A program made the translations under genes and the position numbers. This document shows, piece after piece, positions 9,156-56,553 of a stretch of 64,000 bases of DNA; the first letter of the stretch is position 1, and every line of letters begins with the position of its first letter. Origin of the DNA: a virus (lineage: Duplodnaviria; Caudoviricetes); IMG/VR virus record IMGVR_UViG_3300050491_000011; one strand, 5' to 3'. The notes beneath the pieces were generated by a model that saw only the letters and a program-made list of their open reading frames with translations, was not told the DNA's origin and did no database searches.

Positions 9156-9182
9156 TTAGCCAACACAATTAGGACTGCATCC

Positions 9183-10547
9183 ATGAGCAAAGATCTCATG
9201 CTTCAATACGGCGTCGAATCCGGCGAAGTAGCACCAGAACCAGAAATGGCGAACATCACCGCTGAAGAAGCGCTGACCGACGTGTTGGTTGACGAAGCAG
9301 CCCAAGGCGGCGAAACTCTGTCCAGCCACATGGAACAGGTTGAAGAAACCAAGGACATCGCCGAACAGCTGGAAGAACTGGCTGATCGTACCGAAGCCCT
9401 GGCTGACGCTCAAGAAGAAAACCCGTCGGCTCCTGCCGTTCTCGATGTTGCTACCGAATCCGCTGCTCGCGAATTCCGTGCGATCATGCGCGCCAACAAG
9501 CTGCCGTTCACCGCGTCCAGCTTCGAAAGCAAAGCTACCGACAACCGCCTGCGTGACCTGGCCTCCGACGCTCGTCGTGTTCAGCGTATCGCCGAAGGTC
9601 ACCGTGCCAACCTGTTGGACCTGTCCAACGAAGGCGCCATCTCGCGTTTCCTGAACCGCGATGAAAGCAAGATCGCCAAAGGCATCAACGCCCTGGGCGC
9701 TGCCGAAGCTTCCCTGTCTGGTAGCCTGCAATCCCTGAAAGACCACCCGGTCATCATCACTCACGACGGCATCGCCGGGTTCCTGACCCAAGGTGATTCG
9801 CCAGTCCTGAACCTGAAACAGGGCGTCGAGAAAGATGCTGCTCACCTGGGTCACTGCCATGACGCAGTTACCAAGGCTCTGGCCACCATCGCTTCTCTGG
9901 CTAATGGCCTGAAGGCCAGCGGCGCTACCAAGGGCTCTTCCGTATCGAAGATCCTGAGCGGTAACTTCCTGGGTGACCTGAGCGGCTGCGCTACCAAGGG
10001 TCCTGCTCTGATGGGCAACTACGCTTTCATCGTTGATGGCGCTGCCGTACACGGCGTTCCTAAACTGAAGCGCGTTCGCAACACCGACAAGGCTGACGCC
10101 AAAGGTCGTGGCCGTCAGATCGCCATCGGTGCAGCCATCGGCTTCCTCGTTGGTACAGTCGTAGGCGCTGCGATCGGCGCTGCGATCGGCAACCAGGTTG
10201 GTAAACGTGATAACCGTGAAGGTAGCGGTGCTAAGTCGGCTGCTTCTGCTGCCGATCTGGTTAGCGCTATCAACACAGTGAAAGGCTTCAACAAGATCAC
10301 CGACTACAAAGTCGACACCGATGCTATCGACAAGGCGCTGAAAGATGCGCGTGCTTCCCTGGGCGAACTGTCTGCTGAAGACAAGACCGCTACCAAGAAA
10401 GCGGCCGACGCTCTGGAAGACGCTATCTCCCGTCTGGTGATCATCGCCGACTGCGCTTACGAGCAGGCGTTCTACGACATCACCACCATGGCAGCTGTTG
10501 TTACTGCCGTGGCCAAGCAGGCTGGTCAGCAAGCCGGCGACGAATAA
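9183..10547 (+). CDS. Internal head/ejection protein, paralog 1, with acidic propeptide and glycine-zipper segment
   Basis: Acidic N-terminus. ATES...REFRAIMRANKLPFTASSFES is shared with the next gene. Contains a hydrophobic GAAIG repeat. Confidence 0.7.
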   Translation: MSKDLMLQYGVESGEVAPEPEMANITAEEALTDVLVDEAAQGGETLSSHMEQVEETKDIAEQLEELADRTEALADAQEENPSAPAVLDVATESAAREFRAIMRANKLPFTASSFESKATDNRLRDLASDARRVQRIAEGHRANLLDLSNEGAISRFLNRDESKIAKGINALGAAEASLSGSLQSLKDHPVIITHDGIAGFLTQGDSPVLNLKQGVEKDAAHLGHCHDAVTKALATIASLANGLKASGATKGSSVSKILSGNFLGDLSGCATKGPALMGNYAFIVDGAAVHGVPKLKRVRNTDKADAKGRGRQIAIGAAIGFLVGTVVGAAIGAAIGNQVGKRDNREGSGAKSAASAADLVSAINTVKGFNKITDYKVDTDAIDKALKDARASLGELSAEDKTATKKAADALEDAISRLVIIADCAYEQAFYDITTMAAVVTAVAKQAGQQAGDE

Positions 10548-10557
10548 GGGGTAGATA

Positions 10558-11967
10558 ATGCGTGAATTCATGGAACTCATCTCGACTGAATCCAGCGTAG
10601 TTGCTGAGTCCAGTGATGGTCCTGAAGTCAGCGTATCTGGCATGTTGGTGGAAAGCACCGCCACGGAACCTAGCGTAACTGAGCACTTCGATACGATCGA
10701 AGAAACTCAGGATCTGTCTTCTCAGCTTGACGAGTTGGCAGATCACGCGGACGCCGTGGCGAAGGCTGAAGAAAACGGGGAGATCAGCTCTGAAGCTGCC
10801 TTCCTGTCCACCGAGTCGATGAACCGTGAGTTCCGCTCCATCATGCGTTCGGCTAAGCTACCTTACACTGCTTCGAGTTTCGAAGCTGCTGGTAGTGATG
10901 CTGAGCGTGCGGTGGGTCTTGCTCGCGATGCTCGTCGTGTCAGTAAGCTCGCGTTGGAACATGCAGATCACCTCAGGGACTACACCGAAGAAGGTGCGCT
11001 CCTGAGCTTCCTGCGTCGCGATGAAAGTAAGCTTAACAAAGCTCACGATAGTCTCGATCAAGTTTCCAAACGACTTCAGAAGAAGATCGCTCAGCTGTCC
11101 GAGAAGCCGGTGAAGATTCGTAACCAGGGCTTTGCCCGGTTCATGACTCGTAACAACCGTCAGGTCACCGACCTTGGCGCGGCTATCGGTTCTGAGTCGA
11201 AGTATCTGGCCAGCACTCACGATCAGATCGAATCAGCTATTAAGGCATTGGGCGTAATGTCCAACAACCTTCGTGGCCCTCAGGTTCTGTCTGCCTTGAA
11301 CGGCTTGGTCAACGCCCGTCCATTCGTGTCGGCGTCCAACTTGGGTACGGAAGAAGGTTACCTCATGGGTAACTGCACTATCGAATCCGATGAGACCGAT
11401 GGTCCTTTCCCTCACCTGCTTGTCCCTAAGTACACTCGTACTAGCGGCATCCGGGTTAAGGGTAAGTCCGTTGGTTGGGCGGCTCTCGGCGGTCTGTTCG
11501 GCGCGGTGAACGGTTGGGCTTGGTCTACCATCATCTGCCTTGGCGGTATGGCTGTAGGCGCTCCAGTCGTTGTAGGTCTCGCTTACGCAGCTCTGCCGGT
11601 AATGAAAGTAGGGTTTGGCGCTAAAGGTGCCTACGACTCGTTCCAGAAGTCCGAGGACGAAAGTAACAGTCGTTCTCAAGCATCCGCTCAAGACCTGAAA
11701 CGCGTCGTGGACATGGTGCTGGGCTACACTCGTTACACCAACTACACTGTGGATGCTGATCTGATCCGTGCAAACCTGAAGGCTGCTCGCAAGAACACCG
11801 ACGGAATGACGCCAGAACAGAAGAAGCAGTTGTCCGGTGTAATCAACGCTCTGGACACCAGTCTGGATCGGTTGGTTCGTTTGGCAAGCCAGACGTACGA
11901 GCAAGCGTACTACACGACTACCATGTCGGCTGCGTTGATCTCGGCTGCATGCAATCGTTCGATGTAA
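10558..11967 (+). CDS. Internal head/ejection protein, paralog 2
   Basis: STES...REFRSIMRSAKLPYTASSFEA, FLRRDESK and the C-terminal YEQAYY all align with the preceding gene (FLNRDESK, YEQAFY). Confidence 0.7.
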   Translation: MREFMELISTESSVVAESSDGPEVSVSGMLVESTATEPSVTEHFDTIEETQDLSSQLDELADHADAVAKAEENGEISSEAAFLSTESMNREFRSIMRSAKLPYTASSFEAAGSDAERAVGLARDARRVSKLALEHADHLRDYTEEGALLSFLRRDESKLNKAHDSLDQVSKRLQKKIAQLSEKPVKIRNQGFARFMTRNNRQVTDLGAAIGSESKYLASTHDQIESAIKALGVMSNNLRGPQVLSALNGLVNARPFVSASNLGTEEGYLMGNCTIESDETDGPFPHLLVPKYTRTSGIRVKGKSVGWAALGGLFGAVNGWAWSTIICLGGMAVGAPVVVGLAYAALPVMKVGFGAKGAYDSFQKSEDESNSRSQASAQDLKRVVDMVLGYTRYTNYTVDADLIRANLKAARKNTDGMTPEQKKQLSGVINALDTSLDRLVRLASQTYEQAYYTTTMSAALISAACNRSM

Positions 11968-14627: not shown

Positions 14628-14701
14628 AGTGCTATCTCTTTTAGTGCTTCACGGTATAAAGCCTGGACTCAACCTTTCGGAAGAGTCCAGGAGTAACGGT
14701 G

Positions 14702-15562
14702 TTACGGAGTTACCAACGAGCCTTTGATCGCATTGATCTGCTCGGTGAAACCCGTTGCAACGGCCGATACGTTGGAGTCAACGCCGGTGACGAAGTTGGC
14801 CTGGTACTGTGGGTCCATACCGCTTACGCGGACGGCGTCCATGAAGCCCTGAGCCAATTTGTCAACTGCGTAACCAACCTTCTGCCAGCCAGTCCAGGAC
14901 AGGTTGTAGGTGGCAAGCTCACCATCCTGCTGGAGTTGACGGTTACCGATGTTCTCACCAATTTCCTGATGCAGCCAGAAGTTGGTGATCAGCCAGGAGT
15001 TCTCGACGTAACGGAAAGTCTTGTCGGGCTCGAAGGCGATGATGGTGCCGCCGTACACGTCTGCCAGTTGGTCGGTAAACCGATCGCTGACGCCAGTGAG
15101 GAGCGGATGCCCGGTGTCCGGGTCCATGAACAGGTAACGAACCATGTCTTCCATGAAGCGCATGATTGGACGACGATCCTTGTCCACCACGGTGGAGGTG
15201 ATCTGCGACCGCGCACGCGATACACGGGATGGGGTCTGGAAGACCTCACCGGCGTTACCCAGCTGAGTTTCCTGGGTGTTAACAGTCAGGGTACGGTTGA
15301 AGCCGTTCCAGGACTGCATCCAGTTTTCGATGAAGTTCTTGTAGGCAGCTACGTACAGCTGCCCATTAGGAAGCATCATCAGACCGGCGGGCGCTTGCAG
15401 CACTTTGATGATCAGCGGCTTACGGATGTAGTCCGTGGCCGATGGGTAGTACTGCATGTCGGTCAGGTAGCCTTGTTGGCCCTGTACCGCCATGTTCAGC
15501 ACTGTCATCTGAGCGCGTTCGGCGTACGCCTTATTGGTCAGAGTATCTGCATACCGTCCCAT
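14702..15562 (-). CDS. Tail tube protein (phiKZ gp30-like)
   Basis: 286 aa, directly downstream of the sheath gene (3-nt gap); beta-rich character. Confidence 0.8.
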   Translation of the reverse strand: MGRYADTLTNKAYAERAQMTVLNMAVQGQQGYLTDMQYYPSATDYIRKPLIIKVLQAPAGLMMLPNGQLYVAAYKNFIENWMQSWNGFNRTLTVNTQETQLGNAGEVFQTPSRVSRARSQITSTVVDKDRRPIMRFMEDMVRYLFMDPDTGHPLLTGVSDRFTDQLADVYGGTIIAFEPDKTFRYVENSWLITNFWLHQEIGENIGNRQLQQDGELATYNLSWTGWQKVGYAVDKLAQGFMDAVRVSGMDPQYQANFVTGVDSNVSAVATGFTEQINAIKGSLVTP

Positions 15563-15565
15563 TTA

Positions 15566-17632
15566 TTAAGTCTCCGAAGAACGACGGTTTTGCGCGATGA
15601 TCGCCAGGTTTTCAACGGTGCGAGCGTTGTCACCAGCCATCTCGATATTCAGGTGCCACGAGAAGTTGCTCTGAGTATCGAACGCATCGAAATAAGCGTC
15701 TGGAGTGACGTCGACGCGGCCGTCGTACTTACCAGCAGTACGAGCGGTAACCTTGTCGTTCACCATGTCCAGGAACTGCTCATCGGTGAGCTGCGAGTCA
15801 CCCGACATTTCACGCCAGGTGATGTGCCCGATCCGCGTCAGGTTGCACGCGATGCAAACGTTGATGTAAGCATGCAGGATCGAGGTCTGCTCTTCGTAGA
15901 TCGACTGGATGCCGGCCCAGAAGAGGCGGCCCATATCGAAGTACTCGGCGTAGTTCATCCCGTTGTCCCAGTCAACCTGACGCACTTCAGGCTCTTGGGT
16001 CACGACGTTGTGGTCGCGATAACGAGTGATGGTGTTCTGCTCACCACGGCCGAACGATTTCTCGTTCTTCATCTCGCCGCCTTCAGCGCCCATGTACTCG
16101 GTGCCGAGGATCAAGATGTATTCCAGGAACGGAACGATGCCGTCGTACAGGTCGTCGATCAGATGACCGGCTTGACCGAATACGCAGAAGCGCAGTGCCT
16201 TGGTGCCGAACTCGGACGATTCCTGCTGCGCACGGAAGTGCGAACGCAAGGTGATAGCGATCGAGGAGTCTTGCGCCGGGGTGTTCAGCGGCTTCAGGAC
16301 GTCTTGGGTGCAGGTGTGAACGTACACGTCAGGACGAGCAGTGTGGAACGCCGAGAACTTCAGCTTGGTGGCAACCGGGAAGCCCGAATCCCAGACGGAG
16401 TCGTACGGCATGCGTGCGATGTCTTTGTATGGGACGCCATTGCTGCTGAGATCGCTCAGAACGCTGTCCATCACGGCGTTGAAGCTTTCGTTACCCAGGT
16501 TACCGTCTGCGCCGCCAGTCATCCACAGGTTGGACAGTTCGCCCAAGAGGATGCCGCCGTCAGCAGGACCTTCGATGATGAAGGTATGGTAAGGGTTGCC
16601 GTTGATGTCGGTGCCTGTCAGGAAGTTGAACAGGTTGACATCGGAGAGTTCTTCAGTGGTGTAGTCCGCTTCGGCCGTAGCCAATTGGGTCAACAGCGCC
16701 TGAATGTTTGCGTCGTAGAACGCGAACTTCTCGCACGGACCCCAGCCGGTGAAGGCTTGTGGGTTGTTGGCTTCGTAGCTCTTCTTGATAACCTTGCCAC
16801 CGTAGTACTCGGTGGAGGTCGCCAAGTCGATGGTGCCTTTCTTGAACGAGAAGTCCAGGTAAGGCTGGCTGCGCAGCGTGCGCTGCAAAGTAGCAGTCGA
16901 AGACTTGTTGGCACGGTTAACGAATTGAACGCGGAACAGACGAGCGCCCAGAGCTTCGGCCAGATCTTCATCAACAGGCTGGCTCGACTTGGTAGTCGGA
17001 GCGATCAGGCGCATGCCGATGTTGTTACCCTTCTCGCCTTCGAAGCGAGCCAGGCCGTCCCAGATTGGGATCTCGCGAGAGACCTCACCGCCGACGGTCG
17101 AAACCAGCAGGCCTTCAGCTTCAGCAGCAGCGCCGAAGGTGGATTCACCAGCTTGGTCATTGGTAACAGCTTTCCAACGCCATTGAGCGCGGAAACCAGT
17201 GGTCTTCTCGCCGGTAGGAATCTTGACGCCTTGAGCGTCGAGCTTCAGGCTACCGTCGGTGTTCCGCTCGTAGAGAGGAACTTGGTCTTCGACGATATCG
17301 AGAGCCAGGCGGAAGGATGCTTGTTTGGCACCAGGCGCAGGCAGACGAACGAAGATCGCTTTACCGGAAGCTTCGAAGTGACTGCGGATGAACTGCGATT
17401 GGTGGGTGAAGAACGGAGACAGCGGGTCCGTCACACCAGAACCGAACAGCAGGCTCAAGCCCGAGTCGTTTACGTAGCGACCGTTACCGTACTCACCCCA
17501 AGGTGCGAACGATTGGAACAAAGGAAGACGAATCGGAAGATTCTCGACCGGAAGGGTCAAGCTCGTTACCGTCTCGTCCTTTACGCCCCGGAACTCAGTC
17601 CGTGGCACGGAACTCAAACGACTTACAGACAT
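15566..17632 (-). CDS. Contractile tail sheath protein (phiKZ gp29-like)
   Basis: 688 aa, sheath-sized. Has DSVWDSGFPVATK and C-terminal GKYDGRVDV/WHLNIEM segments. Divergent from the gp28-27-26-terminase operon. Confidence 0.85.
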   Translation of the reverse strand: MSVSRLSSVPRTEFRGVKDETVTSLTLPVENLPIRLPLFQSFAPWGEYGNGRYVNDSGLSLLFGSGVTDPLSPFFTHQSQFIRSHFEASGKAIFVRLPAPGAKQASFRLALDIVEDQVPLYERNTDGSLKLDAQGVKIPTGEKTTGFRAQWRWKAVTNDQAGESTFGAAAEAEGLLVSTVGGEVSREIPIWDGLARFEGEKGNNIGMRLIAPTTKSSQPVDEDLAEALGARLFRVQFVNRANKSSTATLQRTLRSQPYLDFSFKKGTIDLATSTEYYGGKVIKKSYEANNPQAFTGWGPCEKFAFYDANIQALLTQLATAEADYTTEELSDVNLFNFLTGTDINGNPYHTFIIEGPADGGILLGELSNLWMTGGADGNLGNESFNAVMDSVLSDLSSNGVPYKDIARMPYDSVWDSGFPVATKLKFSAFHTARPDVYVHTCTQDVLKPLNTPAQDSSIAITLRSHFRAQQESSEFGTKALRFCVFGQAGHLIDDLYDGIVPFLEYILILGTEYMGAEGGEMKNEKSFGRGEQNTITRYRDHNVVTQEPEVRQVDWDNGMNYAEYFDMGRLFWAGIQSIYEEQTSILHAYINVCIACNLTRIGHITWREMSGDSQLTDEQFLDMVNDKVTARTAGKYDGRVDVTPDAYFDAFDTQSNFSWHLNIEMAGDNARTVENLAIIAQNRRSSET

Positions 17633-17713
17633 GTTGTACTCCCAGGAGCTAGTTCTGCGCAGAACTTCGAGGAATGGTATGGTCAGCGAACTTCAGCCGA
17701 AACGCCGAAGTAA

Positions 17714-33042: not shown

Positions 33043-34050
33043 ATGTCTGAAGTAATCAACACTGGCCTGATCAACGTTCGTCCTCGCACTATCCGTTTCT
33101 ACGCCTGTGGTGGTACTGCAATCAACCAACTGCGCGCTTACCGTGACAACCATCCGGGCGAGCCGCGTCTGCACGGCGACGAGAAATACAGCTACATCGA
33201 TACTTCCTTCGCCAACCTCGACGGCGCTCTGCTGTCCGAAACCTTCACCCTGAAAGGTGTCGATGGTTCCGGTTCCAACCGTAAACAGAACGCGGCGAAG
33301 ATCGTTGCTGCGCTGCCTGAAATCATGTTGGCTCATCAGGCTGCTGATTTCAACGTCGTGATCTTCTCTCTGTCGGGCGGTACTGGCTCTGTTGCCGGTC
33401 CGATCATTCTGAAAGAACTTCTGGCCAAAGGTCACAAAGCTGTCGGCGTTACTTCCGCAGCCTTCACCTCCGGCAAGAAATCCTCCAACGCCATCGATAC
33501 CCTGACTGGCCTGGAGCTGGCTGTTGCGTCCGTCGGCCGTCCGGTTGTTCTGAGCTACACCCCGAACGATCCGAACAAGACCGATTCCGACAACAACATC
33601 AAACCACTGTTCGTTCTGCAAACCCTGGCCAAATTGGCGAGCGGCAAGAACGGCCATCTGGATTCGTCCGACGTGGCGAACCTGTTCGACTTCCACACCG
33701 TAACCAACTACAAGCCATCGCTGGCTCTGCTGGATGTTTACGCCGGTGAAGAACAACTGAAAGCTGACGTCACCAGCGCCATCGGCATTGCCGGTTTGCT
33801 GAAAGACCGCACCAGCGTCATGCCAGCTATCAACGCTGCGTACGACACTGTGGGCTACCTGCCTGAAGACAACCGTGACTTCGCCAACTCCTTCTACTTC
33901 GTCGTTTCCATCGAGAAACTGAACGGCGTCGTGAAAGACATGAACGACCGCAAAGCTCAGGCTGAACTGAAAGAACGCGTCACCAACACTGTCTCCACCC
34001 TTGCTACCGCTGGCGTTGTGGTAGATGAAGCAACCGGCCTGGTCCTCTAA
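33043..34050 (+). CDS. phuZ: Phage tubulin PhuZ
   Basis: FYACGGTAIN nucleotide-binding loop, tubulin signature SLSGGTGS and an acidic-hydrophobic C-terminal knuckle (VVDEATGLVL); 335 aa. Confidence 0.93.
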   Translation: MSEVINTGLINVRPRTIRFYACGGTAINQLRAYRDNHPGEPRLHGDEKYSYIDTSFANLDGALLSETFTLKGVDGSGSNRKQNAAKIVAALPEIMLAHQAADFNVVIFSLSGGTGSVAGPIILKELLAKGHKAVGVTSAAFTSGKKSSNAIDTLTGLELAVASVGRPVVLSYTPNDPNKTDSDNNIKPLFVLQTLAKLASGKNGHLDSSDVANLFDFHTVTNYKPSLALLDVYAGEEQLKADVTSAIGIAGLLKDRTSVMPAINAAYDTVGYLPEDNRDFANSFYFVVSIEKLNGVVKDMNDRKAQAELKERVTNTVSTLATAGVVVDEATGLVL

Positions 34051-43144: not shown

Positions 43145-43215
43145 ATACATTACCGTCTAGCATATAGAAACACGCTGATGGATTTGAATCTAAAAACATT
43201 ACAGGTATACATTAC
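43145..43215 (+). promoter_or_regulatory. Three tandem CATTAC-type candidate promoters upstream of chmA
   Basis: ATACATTAC at 43145-43153, AAAAACATTAC at 43192-43202, ATACATTAC at 43207-43215. Confidence 0.6.
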
Positions 43216-43461
43216 CTTGATGAGTTTAACCATTAAAGATAAGGAACGTCGAATTGATCTAGGTAAAAAGTCACACAGCAACAGAATCTTAAGACCCGTA
43301 GCGTAAAGCCGATTAAGGTACATTCGGTTCAAGCCCGTGCTATTCACGACGGTGGGTATTGCCGGGAATCCCTGATAGCGATAAGGGTAAGAGTACCGTA
43401 ACGCCGTATTGGCACCATCGCAATAAATGTGTACACAAAAAATCTTTAGGAGAGCAGTACT

Positions 43462-45474
43462 GTGAGCAAAGAAAACGACGGCTTCGAAATGAAAGACGAA
43501 CCAACCACCCAACGCGCTGAAGCACCAGCTTCTGAGCGTCGCGAAGAACGCCGTGAAGAGCCACGCCGTGAAGAACGTAGCACCCGCCGTGATCGCGATG
43601 ATCGTGAAGAAGGCGAAGAACGTGCGTTCACAATTGCAGACATCGGCCGTACCCTGAACGTTCGTCCTTCGAGCGGTGGCCTGTCCGACGCAGCTCTGTC
43701 TGCTCTGATGACCGCGTTCGAGAAGAACAAGGCATTCGACAAACCGAACCTGCCTGATGCAATCAAGCGCGACCGTTTCAAAGTGATTCCGCTGGACGGC
43801 TCCCTGGCCAAGTCCTCGCTGAACTCGCTGCTGGTAACTCTGCCAATCGTCATCGGCGCTGGCAAGGCTACCCTGGTTTACGTTCTGACCATCGAACCAG
43901 CTGGCGGCCATGGCACTCGCAGCCAGGTCGATCGCGGTACGACCTACGACGCCATCGTCCTCCCTGAGGACCAACTGGCTACCAAGCCGTACAAACGCGC
44001 CATCGAAGATCAGGTCTCCGGCCTGAACAAAGATGCCAAGGTTGTGGTGATCGGTTCGCAAGTTCTGCTGTCGTCGGTTGTGGCGAAGCTGAACAAAGAA
44101 GAAAACAGCGCCGTCGTCGATCGTATCTTCGACAACGCCCTCGATGCACTGTGCGGCTATCGCGAAAACCTGGTCGACAAGGCCGGTGGTTCCCGCAACA
44201 GCGCATTCCGCATCAGCCCGAAAATGATCGGCCGCACCGGTCGTCTGGAAACCACCTGGAACTACAGTGGCCAGCCAGGCGAAGACAGCTCGGGTCAACC
44301 GATCCGTTCTGACTGCACCGGTAACCTGTTCTACAGCGAAGCCAGCAACGAAGACGACAACCAGTACGACCGTACCCCAATGGGCGAAATCCGTGCCGGT
44401 ATCGACCTCTTCCTGGCCGACAACCGTGAACAGCAGAACGGTCCTTCGTTCAGCCGTCGCCGCAAGTCGCAAGAAGATGGTGAACCGTTCATCCAAGCGG
44501 TATTGAACATCACCTCGATCGCGCCTGCTGCGAACTTCCCGTTCTCCCTGGAACTGGCGCTGCTGCTGTTGGCTCAGGCCAACCTGCAATCGAACGACTA
44601 CCGCTGGGCTTCCCAGCTGCGTCCTCGCACTGCAATCAGCAACCCAGACGGCACCGGCGTGATGAAGCCTACCAGCAACATCAACTGCCTGCACCTCTTG
44701 AATCCGAACCGCGACTTCGCCAAGATCTTCGACGACGTGTCTCCGAACATGGACGACAACGATCTGAGCGATTACCTCGCGTTCACCGTGTTCCCGAAAC
44801 TGGCGATCGGCATGATGATCCCATCTTCGGGCGAGAAGTCCTCGGTTCTGTCGATCTTCGAAAGCATCGCGACCACTCGCGATACCGACGTTGCTCGTCG
44901 CCACACCAAGACGCTGTTCGAAGCTGCCGACGTTCTGTCGGGTAACCGCTTCAGCCGCGCCTACAAGGACCTGGCTGGTTCCGTCGACGTAGCTCCAGTT
45001 CGTTCGATGGGTACTCGTCAACTGATCGGTACTTGGGTCGACACTCAGGGCAACCTGCGTGACCTGCGTGAATGGAACGTCCAGTCTCTCCTCACCGAAG
45101 TTGGCGAGAAGAACATCGATCTGGTGCAGGACTTCCAGTACACCTACGAAAACGACCGCAACACCGTGGACTTCTGCCTGGCAGAACGTCTGGGCTACCT
45201 CCAGAAGGTTGTTCCGGGCATCCGCGTTACCACCACTGCACCGCTGCTGGGCTTCGAGCCTGACTTCCTGGAAGCGCTGTCGCGTTCCCTGGACGCAGCT
45301 GACATGTCGAGCTACATGACTGCCGAAGGCGGTCTGAACACTCGTCGTCACGTTGGTGGCAGCGCCTACTCGCAGCTGGCAACTTCCGACATCGGCATCA
45401 GCCGTCGTCGTGGTTCCGACCGTACCACTGCCGATCGTGGCCGTGGCGGTCTGTTCGACTCGATCGACTACTAA
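43462..45474 (+). CDS. chmA: Chimallin, the major phage-nucleus shell protein (phiKZ gp54 / 201phi2-1 gp105-like)
   Basis: 670 aa with charged disordered N- and C-terminal tails and very strong codon bias. Has GTWVDTQGNLRDLRE and LAER motifs. Lies between the DNA polymerase block and the nvRNAP beta' gene, the canonical position. Confidence 0.88.
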   Translation: MSKENDGFEMKDEPTTQRAEAPASERREERREEPRREERSTRRDRDDREEGEERAFTIADIGRTLNVRPSSGGLSDAALSALMTAFEKNKAFDKPNLPDAIKRDRFKVIPLDGSLAKSSLNSLLVTLPIVIGAGKATLVYVLTIEPAGGHGTRSQVDRGTTYDAIVLPEDQLATKPYKRAIEDQVSGLNKDAKVVVIGSQVLLSSVVAKLNKEENSAVVDRIFDNALDALCGYRENLVDKAGGSRNSAFRISPKMIGRTGRLETTWNYSGQPGEDSSGQPIRSDCTGNLFYSEASNEDDNQYDRTPMGEIRAGIDLFLADNREQQNGPSFSRRRKSQEDGEPFIQAVLNITSIAPAANFPFSLELALLLLAQANLQSNDYRWASQLRPRTAISNPDGTGVMKPTSNINCLHLLNPNRDFAKIFDDVSPNMDDNDLSDYLAFTVFPKLAIGMMIPSSGEKSSVLSIFESIATTRDTDVARRHTKTLFEAADVLSGNRFSRAYKDLAGSVDVAPVRSMGTRQLIGTWVDTQGNLRDLREWNVQSLLTEVGEKNIDLVQDFQYTYENDRNTVDFCLAERLGYLQKVVPGIRVTTTAPLLGFEPDFLEALSRSLDAADMSSYMTAEGGLNTRRHVGGSAYSQLATSDIGISRRRGSDRTTADRGRGGLFDSIDY

Positions 45475-49549: not shown

Positions 49550-50251
49550 ATGTCCCGCACTGGTTTACCTCGTGAAAGAAAGCCTGTAATCCGCAACAAG
49601 CCCCGTGAGGATCTTGAGGATAAGGGCTCTGAAGCTTATCGGGCTTATGTCGCGGAAGGTCTGGAACGGATGGCTAAGGCTGCCACAGAGATCAACGACT
49701 CCACGGCTGAGCGTAAGCGTAAAGTCCCTGAGCAATACTTCGTCAACATCCTACTGCCGGTTCTGCGTAAGTGGATTCGTCGGGAAGAAGTTGAAATCGG
49801 CCACTACCTGAACGTAGCCGATGGTCTCAACAATGAGATCGAAGTTGTCGATCAGGAAGGCGTGAAACTGTACGATGTGCCCCCATTGTTTGTAGACGTA
49901 CCCACTCGAGTGGCGCGTCATGAACCGGGTGTCAACATTCCGACCATCCACAAGATGGTTCAGATTCAGGGGATGCATGTTGATAACAACGACATGCGTC
50001 AGGTCTTTACGATCGAGAACGATCTGGTAGACATCCTGGCTCCGCGTGCAGAAGACGCCTCCAAGACGCGATGCTTGGTGATGTTGTGCCACATCTACGA
50101 CCGCTATGAGCTACCTCTTGAGGAACTCGTTGGCGAAACCCTCGCTCCCGTTATTGCAGCGGCCTTACGGGCTGCTAAAAAGCCCGGCTCTAAAGCCATT
50201 GTAGAGAGCGGTAATAATGCAAGATCAGACGACGACTTTATCATCGACTAA
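49550..50251 (+). CDS. Conserved nucleus-block hypothetical protein
   Basis: AAGGAG ribosome-binding site; 233 aa; overlaps the start of the SbcD gene. Confidence 0.75.
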   Translation: MSRTGLPRERKPVIRNKPREDLEDKGSEAYRAYVAEGLERMAKAATEINDSTAERKRKVPEQYFVNILLPVLRKWIRREEVEIGHYLNVADGLNNEIEVVDQEGVKLYDVPPLFVDVPTRVARHEPGVNIPTIHKMVQIQGMHVDNNDMRQVFTIENDLVDILAPRAEDASKTRCLVMLCHIYDRYELPLEELVGETLAPVIAAALRAAKKPGSKAIVESGNNARSDDDFIID

Positions 50252-51404
50252 AGGCACCGTCATTAAGGTGGGGCTTAGCCGCCTCACCTACGCTATCAGA
50301 CAAGCGGGTGACCTGCTTATCGCTGTTATCAGCGACGTACACCTCGGCCATAGCCGAGTCAAGTCTGCAAAGATTATCGATGTACTGGAGAAGACCTTCC
50401 ACGAAGCGCGCATGATTGCTCTGGATGTGATCATTATCTCCGGTGATCTGTTTGACAAGCGTCTGGCTTATGACAGCGATGACGCGTTTGTAATCACCCG
50501 GTGGATGGAACGGTTCCTGAGACTGGCTGCGAAACACAACGTAGCTATACGAATCCTTGAGGGTACGCCTAGCCACGACAACAGACAGTCCCGCTGGATG
50601 ATTCAGTACAACGAAATGATTGAGGCTAACGCCGACATCAAGTACTACGAGAACATCGTCATTGATGAACTCATCCCCGGTGGTCCGACTGTTCTGTATA
50701 TTCAGGATGAAGTGAACCACGACGCTAACAAGACCTGGAAGATGGTTCAGGAATTGATGCGGGAGCAAGGCGTAGATCAGGTAGACTTTGCCGTAATGCA
50801 CGGCATGTTCACTTATCAGGAGCCTGTACGCAGTATCTCGAGCCACCTTGAGGAACGGTACGAAGCAATCGTGCGCCACTTGATCATCATTGGTCACAAC
50901 CACCATCACACGACCAGTGGAAAGATTCGAGTACCATCTTCTACAGAAAGACTTAGGTTTAACGAAGAGGATGACAAAGGACATCTCCAGTTCTGCTATT
51001 CCCCAACGGATGGCGTTTACGATGAGTTCTTTGTGGTCAATGAAGAAGCAACACTCTTCACGACAATAGATGTAGTGGGCAAGACACTCAACCAAGTGAT
51101 CGCAACCCTCAAGAAACTCAATGGCAGCCCAGACGGTAGTTGGTTCCGTTTGAAGCTTAGCCGAAACGATGAGGCTTATACAGCCTTAACCCGAATAACC
51201 GTAGAGTTCCCGCAGTTCAACATCTCCACCAAAGTAGTGGATGGCGTTGGCGACCTCGATGTAGATGACACTGGATTGGTTGTTGAGACCGTGACCCTGA
51301 CTTCGATCAGGCCAGACACGCTCATGCAGCTTATCCTCCCACGTCTCGATGGTACGCCTGATGACATCATGAGGGAGATCGTGAAGGTGCTGGAGAAAGG
51401 CTAA
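50217..51404 (+). CDS. sbcD: SbcD/Mre11-like metallophosphoesterase nuclease (phiKZ gp65-like)
   Basis: Calcineurin-like motifs SDVHLG, SGDLFD, GTPSHD, MHG and GHNH. Confidence 0.9.
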   Translation: MQDQTTTLSSTKGTVIKVGLSRLTYAIRQAGDLLIAVISDVHLGHSRVKSAKIIDVLEKTFHEARMIALDVIIISGDLFDKRLAYDSDDAFVITRWMERFLRLAAKHNVAIRILEGTPSHDNRQSRWMIQYNEMIEANADIKYYENIVIDELIPGGPTVLYIQDEVNHDANKTWKMVQELMREQGVDQVDFAVMHGMFTYQEPVRSISSHLEERYEAIVRHLIIIGHNHHHTTSGKIRVPSSTERLRFNEEDDKGHLQFCYSPTDGVYDEFFVVNEEATLFTTIDVVGKTLNQVIATLKKLNGSPDGSWFRLKLSRNDEAYTALTRITVEFPQFNISTKVVDGVGDLDVDDTGLVVETVTLTSIRPDTLMQLILPRLDGTPDDIMREIVKVLEKG

Positions 51405-51417
51405 CAGGAAGAGATAC

Positions 51418-52275
51418 ATGACCGTTGAGAATATTTCACGAGAGAAGCTGTCCGAAAGAGCCATGGGACAGTTTCCAATCTCCATTGCTACAAGTCTGGC
51501 AATTGAGTCTCTGGTCGGTATCCTTCCTGAGGCTCCTACGGACGCGCCTGAGATCTTCAAGCGCGACCTGCTACTGATCAACATCCGTACCCTTATCCGC
51601 AACCTACTGGGCTCTGTGGACAAGGAGGCACGCGCATTACTCGAAGAGTACACGATGGCTGAAGCCGTCAGTAACGAGATGCGTGTAATCGAAGAGATCA
51701 TCTCTGAGACTTCGGATGGTCGCTGTGAAGTGAAGTTCTATCACTGCACTTACGGTGATGTTCCACGCAAGTACAAGCAAGCGTTGTTGAAAGGTCCAAC
51801 CACAACAGCGCAACACATGTACTGGGCTCAGAAGAATCTGGTGATCAAGAATCTCCTGACTCAATTCGAGAGCGGTTCTCCTATTGAACAGTGGACAACT
51901 GACTTCCCGGACTTCAATTACAAGACAGTGCTTCTGACGCATTATCCGGTGGACCTGCTACAAAGGTATCGGTTCACCTCGCTAGCGCTCTTAGAATCGC
52001 ACACAGGGGCTATAAAGACACCTCTTATGTGGAACACGAAGTTAGTCAGTGGGAAGGAACATCCGAACCTTCCTTTTGACAAGATGACCTTGCAGATGTT
52101 TGGTGATGGGATTCTATTCAGCCCGATGCCTATCAAGATCCGCAAACGTGTTCTGGAGCTAGCCGAGACCTACAAATGGACTCCGGCTACCACTAAGGCT
52201 TTGATCATCGACTCAGCTGCGTCTCGGAAAGACCCAGCCTTGGAGATGTTGATCAAGGATCTCTATAGTGCGTAA
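51418..52275 (+). CDS. Conserved chimallivirus protein (phiKZ gp66 position), possibly nuclease-like
   Basis: 285 aa with LLINIRTLIRNL; lies between SbcD and the ChmC-like gene. Confidence 0.65.
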   Translation: MTVENISREKLSERAMGQFPISIATSLAIESLVGILPEAPTDAPEIFKRDLLLINIRTLIRNLLGSVDKEARALLEEYTMAEAVSNEMRVIEEIISETSDGRCEVKFYHCTYGDVPRKYKQALLKGPTTTAQHMYWAQKNLVIKNLLTQFESGSPIEQWTTDFPDFNYKTVLLTHYPVDLLQRYRFTSLALLESHTGAIKTPLMWNTKLVSGKEHPNLPFDKMTLQMFGDGILFSPMPIKIRKRVLELAETYKWTPATTKALIIDSAASRKDPALEMLIKDLYSA

Positions 52276-52340
52276 ATAGTTATGAATAGGGACAATGGAA
52301 TGTCCAGAAACCACATTCATCCTCCCTCAGGTGATTTTAC

Positions 52341-53153
52341 ATGTCGCAACAACCCGAAAAGAAACGCCGCGAACCAGAAGCCATTGACGACGGTAAACTC
52401 CGTCTGTACGGCGCTCCTCAAAAGGAAGGCGCACGTCAGACAATGATCCGGGTGAAGCTGGATTCGAACAACAACAACCCGATCATCGAGGTCGACTTCG
52501 GCTACAAGACCGAACCGAAAGCGGGCAAGTCTGAAGGCTTCCCTGTCAAGATCGATACGCCGATGGCGCCGATCCCTTTCCGTACCCTGATGAACCTGAT
52601 CGTCCGCGTTGCGAACTACAACGGCGAAGTGTCGTTCGAAGTCGACAACTGGGGCTTCCCATTCATGTGGGATGCGGATCAGCGTAAGAGCGTTCGTGCC
52701 AAAGAGAAGATGATCATCTCTCGCTTCCAAGTGGCCAAACGTGAAGACGGCGTTGTAACCTTCGGCATCACTGCCAAAGGCAAGCCAGACATGGTTCACG
52801 AGTTCAAATCTGACGAATACCACATGATCATGCAAAATGGTCAGCCGGTTGACGTGAAGATCTCCAGCCGTGAAGCAGCGATCGCTACAGCCGAAGCCTG
52901 GCTGGAAGTGTACTACGAGCGTTTCACTAACAAGTGGGAAGAGCCTGAGTACCAGAAGAAGCGCCGCCTGGAAAACATGCAGAAAGCTCAAGGTGGTGGT
53001 GGCGGTTACCAACAGCAGCGTCAGAACAATGGCGGCGGTGGTGGCAACTACAACAACAACCAACAGCAGCGTCCTCCTCAGCAACAGCAACAGCAATCTG
53101 CGCCGAACCTCGGCGACGGTGGCAACGGCTTTGACGACGATATCCCTTTCTAG
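52341..53153 (+). CDS. chmC: ChmC-like nucleic-acid-binding protein (phiKZ gp67 position) with a Q/N/G-rich tail ending in DDDIPF
   Basis: Beta-rich core plus a low-complexity GGGGGYQQQ...NNNQQQ tail; directly upstream of the gp68-like gene. Identity rests on recalled synteny. Confidence 0.7.
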   Translation: MSQQPEKKRREPEAIDDGKLRLYGAPQKEGARQTMIRVKLDSNNNNPIIEVDFGYKTEPKAGKSEGFPVKIDTPMAPIPFRTLMNLIVRVANYNGEVSFEVDNWGFPFMWDADQRKSVRAKEKMIISRFQVAKREDGVVTFGITAKGKPDMVHEFKSDEYHMIMQNGQPVDVKISSREAAIATAEAWLEVYYERFTNKWEEPEYQKKRRLENMQKAQGGGGGYQQQRQNNGGGGGNYNNNQQQRPPQQQQQQSAPNLGDGGNGFDDDIPF

Positions 53154-53175
53154 GGTCTGAGAGCATTTAGCGTTT

Positions 53176-53216
53176 GTGATACAGGGCCTCACAGCCTTGT
53201 ATCACGGGCTTTATGC
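53176..53216 (+). terminator. Hairpin + TTTATGC
   Basis: GTGATACAGGGC / GCCTTGTATCAC stem followed by TTTATGC at 53210-53216. Confidence 0.65.
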
Positions 53217-53293: not shown

Positions 53294-54883
53294 ATGGAAT
53301 TCAGCATCACTGGATTTACCAAACGAAGTTTCTCAGCCGTCGCAGTTTCTCATCCCGGTGAAAACGATATCATCATCAATGCCGCAGGTTACGCTAACGC
53401 GAAACCCGGTGCAGTAAAGAATGATGAAGAGTTCGGAATGCGCGTCGAGCTGTTCAGCGAGATCAACGATCTCATCAGCCGTTATAGCAAGGGGGAACAA
53501 CAAAAGCTGTACGATTGCTACGCCCGCCTTGACACGGTGCTGGACTCGTACGGTACAGATGTGAAAGCCAGTGAGTTCATGGAGCTGTTGCAAGATATCG
53601 TTAAAGGTATCTTCGACATCGTGAAGTTCGAAGACCTGCGTGATTACCTGACCAGTAATAAGAACATCAAGTTCCCCGCAGAACTGGCTGACACTTACGT
53701 TACAGCAGATAAGATCACTCCGATCTACATGGAGCGTACTTATCTGAAACGGGAATACATCGATCTGGCAGCAGTGGCATTGGGCCTGCGGTGCATGATT
53801 CCTGTTTGGGGTGCTTTCCTTCCAATCGCTATAAAGGAAGAAGGGCCGAAGAAGAAGGAGTACGTTGCGTACAAGCTTCTGGATACCTGCCTGCTTAAGG
53901 AGTGTCCTGCATTCGATCGTCTGGAAACTTACGTTCGGGCAAACACTACCGAGATGGAACACGAGATGGCTATCATCTTCGAGTTCCTGTCATCTGAGGA
54001 GATCCCTGTCTTCTTGATGGCATTGGCATTGATCCGTAAGGTTTCGATTGCACCGTTGTCCGCTGAGACGGATAAGGATCACTTGATGAAGGTGGTCTTC
54101 AACTACGTCTGCGGTAACAACAACAGACTTCCAGCGGCATTCGGCGGTAACATCCGTTCGAAGATCGATGTGGAAGCAGCAACAGACGACAATAGTTCGG
54201 TCTGGTGCTACTACAAAATGAAGGAGCAGATCAGTACTGGCGACCTCTGCATCTTCCAGCTGTACATCACCGATTATCTTGAAGCGGCTCGCGCCATTGA
54301 TCAAGAGATCACCGACGAACAAACCGAGATGTGCGTAGCACGCGCGCAGAAGCTGGCACGGTTTGATCCGAATGACGCACAGATCGCTCTCTGCATCTGG
54401 GTAATGTCTACAGTGGTAGCAGGTTGTGCGATCGAGATGTTCGACCGTAACACTCTGTTCACGGCCATGGGTATCTCCCAGACCGTACTGTGGAAGTGGG
54501 GTTTCCATCAATTGGCAATCCTGCAAACAGCAGCTCCCGTCCAGATGGCTGACGACGAGATGATGACCCCGGTTCCTAGAACCAAGATCAGCGACGAGAA
54601 CATGAAACAACTGGAATACATCTATCCTTACACAATGCCGGAGAGCAAGAAGGATAGTGGTCAATCACCAAACGTTGGGGTACGTGGGGTAGAAGACGCG
54701 GCAAATGTATTCTTCAAGAACGAATGGGAACCTCAGTGCCCGCGCCAATTGGCAGCGAAGTTCGAAAGGTCAGACGTTACCCGGCGTCTCCAGGTTTCCA
54801 GTGACTTCCGCGATGAGCTGGCTGAGTTGTTTATCAAGCTGGACGGTTACGTACGTCACATCCCTATCCCGGTAATGGACTGA
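53294..54883 (+). CDS. Non-virion RNAP promoter-specificity subunit (phiKZ gp68-like)
   Basis: About 530 aa, helical. Lies between the ChmC-like and PicA-like genes and upstream of the beta/beta' pair. GGAG ribosome-binding site. Confidence 0.75.
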   Translation: MEFSITGFTKRSFSAVAVSHPGENDIIINAAGYANAKPGAVKNDEEFGMRVELFSEINDLISRYSKGEQQKLYDCYARLDTVLDSYGTDVKASEFMELLQDIVKGIFDIVKFEDLRDYLTSNKNIKFPAELADTYVTADKITPIYMERTYLKREYIDLAAVALGLRCMIPVWGAFLPIAIKEEGPKKKEYVAYKLLDTCLLKECPAFDRLETYVRANTTEMEHEMAIIFEFLSSEEIPVFLMALALIRKVSIAPLSAETDKDHLMKVVFNYVCGNNNRLPAAFGGNIRSKIDVEAATDDNSSVWCYYKMKEQISTGDLCIFQLYITDYLEAARAIDQEITDEQTEMCVARAQKLARFDPNDAQIALCIWVMSTVVAGCAIEMFDRNTLFTAMGISQTVLWKWGFHQLAILQTAAPVQMADDEMMTPVPRTKISDENMKQLEYIYPYTMPESKKDSGQSPNVGVRGVEDAANVFFKNEWEPQCPRQLAAKFERSDVTRRLQVSSDFRDELAELFIKLDGYVRHIPIPVMD

Positions 54884-54923
54884 AAAGTTCAATCCCCTAG
54901 AGTATTAAGCACAGGAGTAATTC

Positions 54924-56513
54924 ATGGAACTTGTTAAACTTATCTTCGTGGAAACTGAAGGCAGCGACACTCCAGTCATTCGCCCTTACGAAACCTCGTT
55001 GAAGAAAGACGACCTCGATCTGTTTGCAAAGGCAACCGATGATGGTGCGAACCTCAGCACTATCCGGCTGGCCAAGGTTGTAGCTCCACTCCTCGGTCCA
55101 TCGAACCGCCGGCAGCACAAGTCCCACATCGCCAACGGCTGGTCCGAATCCCGGATCATGTTCGGCATGGTTGTTAAGGTGATGAACCGTGACAACGCCA
55201 GCACCTACGAGTATATCGTGGGCTATACCGACAACAGCGAACACGCCCGTCGTGGCGACACCGCGAAGTTCGATGCTGGCATGAAAATGTACTTCAATAA
55301 CATTACGAGGGTTCACATGCAGGAATCCCGTCACCGTAATGATAACATCTGGGTGCCGAAGATTCAGGCGCATGACCAGATCCTCCTGCGTTCCAGCCTG
55401 ACCGGTTCTGATCGTGGCACTACCCGTGGCGGCGATCGTCCAGTTACTCTGCGTCCTACCGACTTGTTCAAGCGCGGTGGTGCAGATGCGGCATTCGGGT
55501 CGTTCATGCGTGATAACGATTCGAACGTAAACAATACCGTTGGTTCGTTCAGCTCGGCTATCCGTGCATCGAACGTTGTCAACAACAGCCAGACCGCATA
55601 CGCGGCCCGTAACCTGAATGCGTGGATGCAGGCGAGTAATTCGCCTAACGATGCGTACGTTGGTGACGGTAATGATGAAGACACCATCCAGGCAGCTTCT
55701 GATCGTTTGGCAGAGAACTCTCTGGAACTCGATCCGTATCTGGAGCGTATCAAGCGTGATACCAATATTCTCCGTGAAGGTTGCATTACTTTCGGCGAAC
55801 TGATGGACATGAACGAAGACTTCGATGAAGATCGTCAGTTGATGTTCGTTCCGTTGGACAAGCGTAAGCGCGGTGGTTTCATCAACAACTCCGCATGGGG
55901 TGAAGATACCAACGAGGCAATCGCTGCGACCATCATCGCAAACTCCCTGCCCGGCATTCTGATCAACTCGATGTATTCGTCGGTATCTGGTCTGGTGCTG
56001 AACAGCCGTGCGCGCTTCGGCGAGTACAAAGTGGTCTGCTCTGAGCCAACTCCGTTTGCTCCAGGCATGTCGGTTAAGGCGAACTGGCCATACTTCGAAA
56101 GTCAGATCGAACACGTTCTGATGGAAGAAGTTGGTTGCGGTGGTGCGTTTGAGTTTGAAGCGTACATCGACGCGAACATCGACCAGTACATCAAGATCCG
56201 TATCCGGATGGATGGTGGTGAAGAAGCATCGTTCAACTTCCCAGCTTACGCGTCCAGTCTTCTGGCGCCTACGCAGGATAAAGACTTCAAGTCGCTGGAC
56301 AAAATGTCGAAAGGCGTTATCGATCTGGCTTCCGGTCTGTCGAACATGCGGATGTCTCGCGCAGGCATCGGGTCTCAAGAAGATGGTCTCAACACTGGCA
56401 GCGAAAGCCGCATCAAGTTGGGCGCCAGCAAAGAGCCTCGTTCTCGTGACAATGATTACAGAGCCGCTCCAGCAGCAGCCTCTGGCGATAAGAAAGGTGG
56501 TAAGGGCTGGTAA
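54924..56513 (+). CDS. picA: Phage-nucleus import factor PicA/Imp1-like (phiKZ gp69-like)
   Basis: 529 aa with VIRPYET and IANGWSESRIMFGMVV; canonical position after the gp68-like gene. Confidence 0.75.
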   Translation: MELVKLIFVETEGSDTPVIRPYETSLKKDDLDLFAKATDDGANLSTIRLAKVVAPLLGPSNRRQHKSHIANGWSESRIMFGMVVKVMNRDNASTYEYIVGYTDNSEHARRGDTAKFDAGMKMYFNNITRVHMQESRHRNDNIWVPKIQAHDQILLRSSLTGSDRGTTRGGDRPVTLRPTDLFKRGGADAAFGSFMRDNDSNVNNTVGSFSSAIRASNVVNNSQTAYAARNLNAWMQASNSPNDAYVGDGNDEDTIQAASDRLAENSLELDPYLERIKRDTNILREGCITFGELMDMNEDFDEDRQLMFVPLDKRKRGGFINNSAWGEDTNEAIAATIIANSLPGILINSMYSSVSGLVLNSRARFGEYKVVCSEPTPFAPGMSVKANWPYFESQIEHVLMEEVGCGGAFEFEAYIDANIDQYIKIRIRMDGGEEASFNFPAYASSLLAPTQDKDFKSLDKMSKGVIDLASGLSNMRMSRAGIGSQEDGLNTGSESRIKLGASKEPRSRDNDYRAAPAAASGDKKGGKGW

Positions 56514-56553
56514 AGCCCTTTTCACAAAACCCTATTAATGACCACGGGAATCA

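Follow-up and report, generated by a model that had tools for sequence, protein, structure and literature searches.

An SSB-type C-terminal tip on the ChmC/Imp6 orthologue of an uncultured jumbo phage and across the ChmC family

We analyzed a stretch of 64,000 nucleotides of viral DNA (hereafter the window) from the IMG/VR record IMGVR_UViG_3300050491_000011 (Duplodnaviria; Caudoviricetes). One of its genes encodes an orthologue of ChmC (Chimallin C), also called Imp6, a protein of nucleus-forming jumbo phages. The last seven residues of this protein, FDDDIPF, are identical to the last seven residues of the SSB (single-stranded DNA-binding) protein of Escherichia coli. An FDDDIPF-type tip is a trait of the whole ChmC family and is not peculiar to the phage represented by the window. 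Judging from sequence comparisons, the tip appears to be a short linear motif that is kept under selection on a drifting tether. We lean, with modest confidence, towards the reading that the tip docks phage-encoded partner proteins and has a second role in self-regulation and condensation.

According to the translation of its open reading frame (ORF), the protein consists of 270 amino acid residues (aa) and ends in ...GGGGGYQQQRQNNGGGGGNYNNNQQQRPPQQQQQQSAPNLGDGGNGFDDDIPF, followed by a TAG stop codon. The ATG at position 52341 is the first start codon after an in-frame TGA (52332-52334) located three codons upstream, and homologues have the same MS... N-terminal residues. The start of the ORF is therefore secure. 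Residues 1-215 have an ordinary composition. The linker that follows (47 residues, 216-262) is rich in Q (30%), G (28%) and N (17%). The folded domain is basic, with an isoelectric point (pI) of 8.9, and the tip is acidic. The SSB of E. coli K-12, as read from NC_000913.3, ends in ...PPMDFDDDIPF; the shared seven residues are residues 172-178 of SSB. The probability of finding DDDIPF at a given C-terminus by chance is about 2e-8 under the window's own amino acid composition. The original prediction, made from the sequence of the window, had placed a DDDIPF tip after a Q/N/G linker at 52341-53153. These coordinates are exact, and the SSB-type architecture of linker plus tip is present in the tail. 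Scans for promoters and terminators around the gene gave signals at the background level only.

The protein belongs to phrog_3284 of the PHROGs database, to which it matches over its full length (E 1e-26). The same family takes PhiPA3 gp61 (6e-81), Goslar gp176 (1e-35) and the orthologue from DT01 (2e-41). PhiPA3 gp61 and Goslar gp176 are characterised ChmC proteins (PMC11077065); in Chimalliviridae the name ChmC/Imp6 covers these two as well as phiKZ gp67 and 201phi2-1 gp123 (Enustun et al., NAR 2024, PMC11077065; for Imp6 see bioRxiv 10.1101/2024.03.27.586873). A comparison by hhalign of the tail-less N-terminal domain profile, built from 26 sequences, with PhiPA3 gp61 gave a probability of 96.8% (E 2.6e-10). 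Among 50,697 phage records no match was obtained with either a 6.3-kb query in megablast or the full-length ChmC protein in tblastn, and the sole match of the tail-less domain in tblastn was Goslar gp176 (E 1e-4). As only the tail-less domain reached this protein, the phage has no close cultured relative among these records. No Pfam match was obtained for the protein at E values up to 0.1.

These family and profile matches, together with the gene order and the Whirly-like predicted fold described below, identify the protein as an orthologue of the ChmC/Imp6 of nucleus-forming jumbo phages. Thus the label "ChmC-like" given in the original prediction was correct. The protein is approximately 20-25% identical to the studied ChmC members and has a linker richer in Q. 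The protein and these members have in common phrog_3284, a homologous N-terminal domain, the gene neighbourhood, a fold predicted to be Whirly-like, and a tail that is disordered, rich in N/G/Q and acidic at its end. Homology leads us to expect a protein that is abundant, made early and tetrameric, that binds single-stranded RNA (ssRNA) and single-stranded DNA (ssDNA) as well as PicA/Imp1, and that is located at the nuclear shell.

The tip is conserved far beyond the window. Nearly all of 27 close metagenomic homologues end in FD[DE]D[IL]PF. Across 26 aligned homologues P269 never varies, the conservation of D267 and F270 reaches at least 90%, and the linker is unalignable. A search with the profile of the tail-less domain resulted in 832 cluster representatives (at most 50% identity); the counts of endings given here cover 174 homologues that were read. 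The tail took no part in this search and is therefore an independent observation. A hydrophobic-Pro-hydrophobic end that reaches the C-terminus or stops no more than one residue short of it, and that is directly preceded by at least two acidic residues, was found in 141 of the 174 proteins. In 159 of them the last residue is hydrophobic and there is an acidic run, and 23 end exactly in DDDIPF. The family consensus of the tip is F-D-D-D-I-P-F. Among the 106 tips with the core pattern (acidic residues at -5 and -4, Pro at -2), the commonest residues are D at -6, -5 and -4, I or L at -3, and F at -1. About a third of canonical-looking tips have M, L or W in place of F as their last residue.

Four homologues (P0069, P0079, P0113 and P0165) are tandem duplicates of 404-466 aa, in each of which the ChmC domain profile matches twice. 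They carry a single tail at the final end and not one per domain. Three of these tails (P0079, P0113, P0165) have a D-x-D-I-P-F tip, and P0069 ends in ...VENDIF. The cultured members end in ...DEDMPSF (phiKZ type), ...DDEIPNF (PhiPA3), ...AFDGLAF (Goslar) and ...DDDVWG (Eowyn). The window's ChmC has a clean FDDDIPF, whereas the first three of these, the published models, have degenerate tips. Canonical tips do occur in cultured phages, such as Xanthomonas RTH11 and Burkholderia FLC9.

A complete IMG/VR genome of 253.9 kb, which has direct terminal repeats and shares about 91% identity with the window, served us as a stand-in for the whole genome of the phage. Between the two ChmC genes there are 18 synonymous codon changes and one non-synonymous change in the folded domain. 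The linkers differ by three indels as well as substitutions, and no difference is seen in the last 10 residues. Of 1,253 six-frame ORFs of at least 50 aa in the 253.9-kb genome, a single one ends in the loose tip pattern [DE][DE][ILVMFW]P[FWMLYIV], with 0.07 expected, and this ORF is the ChmC orthologue. It is the fixed tip next to a hypervariable, indel-prone linker that points to a selected linear motif. A survey of ChmC homologues for the tip had been proposed as a check of the original prediction, and the 141 acidic, Pro-containing endings bear out the conservation. The same survey does not support the suggestion that this protein is singled out by a host-mimicking tip, as the entire ChmC family has FDDDIPF for its consensus ending.

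The folded domain of ChmC is predicted to be Whirly/PUR-like. In the AlphaFold2 (AF2) model, built from an alignment of 26 sequences, pLDDT averages 79.8. Two repeats of a beta-sheet plus a helix make up the folded part, residues 10-218 (pLDDT 80-98), and residues 221-270 are disordered (pLDDT < 50). The four best matches among 48,161 PDB representatives are StWhy2 (Z 8.1), MRP1/2 (Z 7.8), PBF-2 (Z 7.8) and Pur-alpha (Z 7.7). The Whirly/PUR/MRP1-MRP2 proteins (plant WHY1-3 and StWhy2, Trypanosoma brucei MRP1/2, Pur-alpha) are thus the best structural matches, over approximately 125-140 residues. The top ten matches in Foldseek are nearly all MRP1/2, PBF-2 and WHY1-3, with E of about 0.01. These structure-match scores are moderate, and the Whirly/PUR call rests on the agreement among the matches. 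Proteins of the Whirly/PUR/MRP group bind single strands; Whirly and MRP proteins are tetrameric, and plant Whirlies guard organelle DNA. They have no detectable sequence similarity to the window's ChmC, and to our knowledge an SSB-type linker and tip is not present in any of them. Searched against PDB sequences, the N-terminal domain profile gave no meaningful match. The search of the tail against PDB sequences with phmmer gave only a spurious low-complexity match to condensin; full-length SSB chains were not retrieved in it, probably due to composition filters. A Whirly fold has been published for ChmC (PMC11077065), in agreement with our model.

With no match to the SSB family PF00436 and a Whirly-like predicted fold, the window's ChmC is neither an OB-fold SSB nor a member of the SSB family. 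We also considered the SSB of phage Enc34 as a precedent for the Whirly fold but dropped it, as this protein is gp2.5-like (PF10991, Enc34_ssDNA-bd).

The likeness of ChmC to E. coli SSB concerns architecture. In both, a domain that binds single-stranded nucleic acid is followed by some 50 residues of disordered, G/Q/N/P-rich linker, and the chain closes with an acidic tip. Both are homotetramers with tail-dependent condensates, which in the case of ChmC is published on PhiPA3. The condensation of E. coli SSB depends on its linker and tip. In bacterial SSB the tip is a docking peptide through which partner proteins are recruited. In contrast to SSB, the ChmC core is predicted to be Whirly/PUR-like and not an OB-fold; besides, the studied ChmC relative prefers RNA, and ChmC acts in a compartment built by the phage. 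The tails of ChmC and of E. coli SSB match the same PHROG tail models, phrog_18154 and phrog_2544. However, the alignment score of the two linkers is no better than that of shuffled sequences (p 0.40), which rules out a claim of linker homology and leaves a likeness in composition only (Q/G/N in ChmC vs G/Q/P in E. coli SSB). With a likeness of this kind, convergence and an old domain transfer are indistinguishable. The resemblance of the linkers may be an analogy, or a homology eroded past detection.

Other phages also have single-strand binders with acidic C-terminal tails, namely T4 gp32 and T7 gp2.5. These tails mask the protein's own binding surface and recruit phage polymerase, helicase and recombination proteins. 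Unlike ChmC, both proteins have the OB-fold and tail sequences of their own, which are not of the bacterial DDDIPF type. The window's ChmC has no match in Pfam to the gp32 family PF08804 or to the Enc34 family PF10991.

The function of the tip should be considered in the light of the published data on ChmC. PhiPA3 ChmC is a very abundant homotetramer that binds ssRNA with a Kd of 58 nM and ssDNA with a Kd of 184 nM and forms condensates for which its tail is required (PMC11077065). Deletion of the tail spares tetramer formation and RNA binding, but PhiPA3 ChmC loses its localisation at the shell and the titre of Goslar is not rescued (PMC11077065). ChmC was discovered through its proximity to ChmA and the recombinase UvsX, and nuclei in ChmC knock-downs hold less DNA (PMC11077065). 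A pull-down with GFP-ChmC yielded ribosomal proteins, host RNA polymerase (RNAP), ChmB, the gp68-type nvRNAP subunit and a vRNAP subunit (PMC11077065). The phiKZ protein gp67, i.e., Imp6, forms a stable 2:1 complex with Imp1/PicA (bioRxiv 10.1101/2024.03.27.586873). ChmC is also pulled down, along with DNA polymerase and nvRNAP, by GFP-Rhc (RNase H-clamp), the co-purification with ChmC being seen in Goslar (PMC13648698). The 91%-identical relative encodes a 495-aa protein with an RNase H domain plus an extra domain, which is an orthologue of Rhc; its gene lies outside the window, near 58 kb of the relative's genome (L016:1261-2748; G001:C1). The known binders of the C-terminal peptide of SSB (SSB-Ct) include E. 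coli RNase HI, and for this reason the Rhc orthologue is a candidate partner of the tip.

We propose the following mechanism, for which SSB, T4 gp32 and T7 gp2.5 serve as the model. The N-terminal Whirly-like domain would bind single-stranded RNA and DNA, as published for PhiPA3 ChmC and as expected here by homology. The flexible Q/G/N linker would present the acidic FDDDIPF at the extreme C-terminus, and the tip would be a docking peptide that tethers partner proteins to single-stranded nucleic acid coated with ChmC. A tip that has no partner or nucleic acid at hand may fold back on the basic surface and thus tune binding; the folded-back tip and the linker together may tune the formation of condensates. 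The partner would most probably be encoded by the phage and situated in the nucleus or on the shell. Published pull-downs offer PicA/Imp1, ChmB, nvRNAP gp68, Rhc with DNA polymerase, and UvsX as candidates. For one of them, the gp68-like subunit, the predicted complex with residues 231-270 of the ChmC tail had a score of 0.01 (mark 0.32), which speaks neither for nor against binding. A phage-encoded partner is more likely than a host one, because the tips of the cultured phages differ from the tip of host SSB and because the terminal residue varies between F, M, L and W. Such variation fits a partner that co-evolves with the phage. We assume docking beyond an effect of charge since charge alone leaves the invariant Pro, the flanking hydrophobic residues and the terminal position unexplained.

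Several observations weigh against docking to phage proteins. A partner that binds the tip is shown neither in our analysis nor in the literature searched. The published deletion takes away the linker and the tip together, so the linker alone could explain the phenotypes; moreover, an "electronegative cluster" that suppresses non-specific RNA binding, combined with an N/G-rich condensation region, explains them with no docking at all (PMC11077065). ChmC binds RNA better than DNA, and eCLIP puts it on phage mRNAs (PMC11077065); therefore an SSB-like role on DNA would be secondary at best. An AlphaFold screen of phiKZ Rhc versus all phiKZ proteins did not select gp67 (PMC13648698). FLAG-tagged phiKZ gp67 still bound Imp1 (bioRxiv 10.1101/2024.03.27.586873); the placement of the tag is ambiguous, and if it is C-terminal, the contact of gp67 with Imp1 needs no free tip. 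Finally, the tips of phiKZ, PhiPA3 and Goslar are degenerate, yet these proteins function.

The published interpretation of the tail involves self-regulation only. The "electronegative cluster" would shield the basic RNA-binding surface and keep the protein soluble, and together with the N/G/Q-rich linker it would drive the formation of RNA-protein condensates at the shell, with no docking. The basic pI of the folded domain and the acidity of the tip fit this view. In E. coli, too, the SSB tip itself binds the SSB core. The effects of tail deletion, which ends condensates and shell localisation and does not affect the tetramer or RNA binding, are in line with it (PMC11077065). E. coli SSB also forms condensates (PMC7584906), and contacts between the SSB core and the disordered tail aid its condensation (PMC7584906, PMC11947617). 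However, charge alone would not account for three features: 141 of 174 homologues have Pro at -2, the residues at -3 and -1 are hydrophobic, and the motif keeps its place at the very C-terminus. A Pro-Phe end and a free carboxylate are exactly the features that SSB-Ct pockets recognise. Besides, in SSB, gp32 and gp2.5 the tail that binds its own protein binds partners as well, and hence the two roles are non-exclusive. We regard self-regulation as the whole function of the tip as less likely than docking of phage partners and somewhat more likely than mimicry of the host.

The phages related to the window have no recognisable SSB. Five complete relatives, including the 253.9-kb genome, gave no match to PF00436, PF08804 or PF10991, and PhiPA3, Goslar and DT01 gave no match to PF00436. 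As a control, the PF00436 search registered a match in 12 of 14 control genomes and a match over the cut-off in 10 of them. This agrees with a survey in which an OB-fold SSB is a defining gene of group 2 jumbo phages and is not listed for the phiKZ-like group 1 (Iyer et al. 2021, PMC7824862). These genomes could still conceal an SSB that has diverged strongly. As a recognisable SSB is lacking, ChmC may do SSB-like work on phage ssDNA. In an extended form of this idea, ChmC is the missing SSB: the Whirly tetramer would coat nascent RNA and phage ssDNA, the tip would be a hub for phage enzymes of replication, recombination and R-loop processing (Rhc with DNA polymerase, UvsX, nucleases), and the tip together with PicA/Imp1 might license the entry of host SSB partners. 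We give this extended form only tentative credence.

The original prediction suggested a mimicry of the host. In this reading the tip would copy the end of host SSB and capture SSB-interacting proteins such as ExoI, RecQ, PriA, RNase HI, Ung or topoisomerases. SSB partners would then be sequestered from host or phage DNA, or chosen ones would be imported by ChmC acting as Imp6 with PicA/Imp1. The seven-residue identity to E. coli SSB in the window's clade and the 23 exact DDDIPF endings are consistent with this suggestion. An FDDDIPF peptide should fit the SSB-Ct pockets of host enzymes, and it would probably bind them in vitro. Furthermore, ChmC is located both in the cytoplasm and at the shell (PMC11077065), and as Imp6 it is a direct partner of Imp1 in a system that imports host TopA (bioRxiv 10.1101/2024.03.27.586873).

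The tips of the cultured phages argue against mimicry of the host. Their hosts have an SSB that ends in DDDIPF, which we verified in sequence for E. coli and presume for Pseudomonas and Klebsiella, yet these phage tips should fit the pockets poorly. In phiKZ and PhiPA3 there is an extra residue between the Pro and the Phe, and Goslar and Eowyn have the endings AFDGLAF and DDDVWG. Bacterial SSBs are known to keep the terminal Phe, whereas M, L or W closes about a third of canonical-looking ChmC tips. Despite its AFDGLAF end the tail of Goslar ChmC is required for titre, the reported list of proteins co-purified with GFP-ChmC names no host SSB partner, and the phage nucleus keeps out most host proteins (PMC11077065). 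We therefore consider mimicry of the host improbable as the main function. Docking of phage partners, host mimicry and self-regulation are not mutually exclusive. As for a functionless ending that arose by chance, the tail is indeed of low complexity and its likeness to the SSB linker is merely compositional, but the roughly 2e-8 probability of the exact hexapeptide, the preservation of the tip across hundreds of clusters (at most 50% identity) while the linker drifts, and the 10 identical terminal residues beside three linker indels leave this explanation a negligible probability, and family-wide conservation effectively refutes it.

The phage is uncultured, and its DNA has been found in rhizosphere and soil metagenomes; no RNA data set was listed among the sequencing runs that contain it. 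The features discussed here are listed in the table. The genes around ChmC stand in the order SbcD-like nuclease, gp66-like protein, ChmC, gp68-like nvRNAP subunit, PicA/Imp1-like protein, which matches phiKZ gp65-69 and PhiPA3 gp059-063. The block order is kept in PhiPA3, Goslar, DT01, a phiKZ-type phage, Eowyn and FLC9. A gp66-like gene lies between the SbcD-like nuclease and ChmC in those related records whose upstream genes were visible; antisense knock-down of this gene in phiKZ/PhiPA3 is reported to have had a mild effect (PMC12571901). The gp68-like ORF opens at a GTG (53273), and its homologues have 529 aa and begin at the position of the ATG at 53294 (MEFSITGF...). Thus the real start is probably this ATG and not the GTG. 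The PicA/Imp1-like protein has the C-terminus ...GDKKGGKGW.

Table. Coordinates of ChmC, its parts and other genes discussed, in positions of the window
Feature	Coordinates	Strand	Basis
ChmC/Imp6 orthologue, 270 aa + TAG	52341..53153	+	ORF, phrog_3284, hhalign to PhiPA3 gp61
N-terminal folded domain of ChmC, residues 1-215, predicted Whirly/PUR-like, presumed single-stranded nucleic acid binder	52341..52985	+	AF2 model, structure matches
Disordered Q/G/N-rich linker of ChmC, residues 216-262	52986..53126	+	pLDDT < 50, composition
Acidic C-terminal tip GFDDDIPF of ChmC, residues 263-270, SSB-Ct type	53127..53150	+	Identity to E. coli SSB end, family conservation
SbcD/Mre11-like nuclease, phiKZ gp65 position	50217..51404	+	Pfam Metallophos, phrog_100; position of PhiPA3 gp059
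gp66-like conserved protein, phiKZ gp66 position	51418..52275	+	phrog_3229 E 9e-80, synteny
gp68-like nvRNAP subunit	53294..54883	+	phrog_3209 E 2e-92; tblastn to PhiPA3 gp062, Goslar gp175
PicA/Imp1-like nuclear import factor	54924..56513	+	phrog_3141 E 3e-58; BLASTP to PhiPA3 gp063 E 3e-13
Divergent chimallin (ChmA)-like shell protein	43462..45474	+	BLASTP to PhiPA3 nuclear shell protein gp053
PhuZ tubulin	33043..34050		Counts towards a nucleus-forming phage

The ChmA-like protein is very divergent: its match to PhiPA3 gp053 has an E value of 4e-6 and 21% identity over 425 residues. As in PhiPA3, its gene is flanked by those for DNA polymerase and an RNAP beta subunit. This ORF supports the assignment of the window to a nucleus-forming phage, as do PhuZ, a divergent family B DNA polymerase and several genes of multi-subunit phage RNAPs, which the window also carries.

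Three long antisense ORFs, 52317..53192 (-), 54897..56525 (-) and 43150..45351 (-), of 291, 542 and 733 aa, lie opposite the ChmC, PicA-like and ChmA-like genes. They have no family match and a V/R/L-rich composition, and look like shadow ORFs of the genes on the plus strand. The 733-aa ORF was considered as a ChmA candidate and rejected: it has no match in PHROGs, Pfam or tblastn and is the antisense of the ChmA-like ORF. Neither the 1,004-aa ORF 14699..17713 (+) nor the 502-aa ORF 9156..10664 (-) has a PHROG or Pfam match; the latter may be another shadow ORF. Shadow ORFs could mislead gene callers that prefer the longest ORF.

ChmC itself is a known protein, and its tail is described in papers as N/G-rich and then S/D/E-rich (PMC11077065). 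An SSB-type tip on the ChmC family is unreported in the literature we searched. The term "SSB" is absent from the ChmC paper (PMC11077065) and from recent reviews, the term "C-terminal" is absent from the Imp6 preprint (bioRxiv 10.1101/2024.03.27.586873), and a full-text literature search for ChmC together with SSB returned unrelated papers only. The degenerate tips of the three model phages may explain both why the match went unnoticed and why the end of the tail was described as S/D/E-rich. The new elements of the current work are the comparison of synonymous, non-synonymous and indel changes between the domain, the linker and the tip, the finding that a whole genome holds such a tip only once, and the argument from the mismatch between the tips of cultured phages and their hosts.

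The window adds to the family a divergent ChmC member with a textbook tip, and provides a clear case of an SSB-type tail on a fold predicted to be other than OB. ChmC is an essential protein and one of the most abundant that nucleus-forming phages make early; as ChmC it belongs to mRNA export and as Imp6 to protein import, and it stands at the junction of the two. What was vaguely an "acidic, disordered tail" becomes a precise hypothesis for mutational analysis, with a hint as to where the partners lie. These phages have no recognisable gene for a single-strand-binding function, and ChmC is a candidate for filling this gap. If ChmC were indeed the missing SSB, then mRNA export, protein import and DNA replication would all be tied to one C-terminal peptide.

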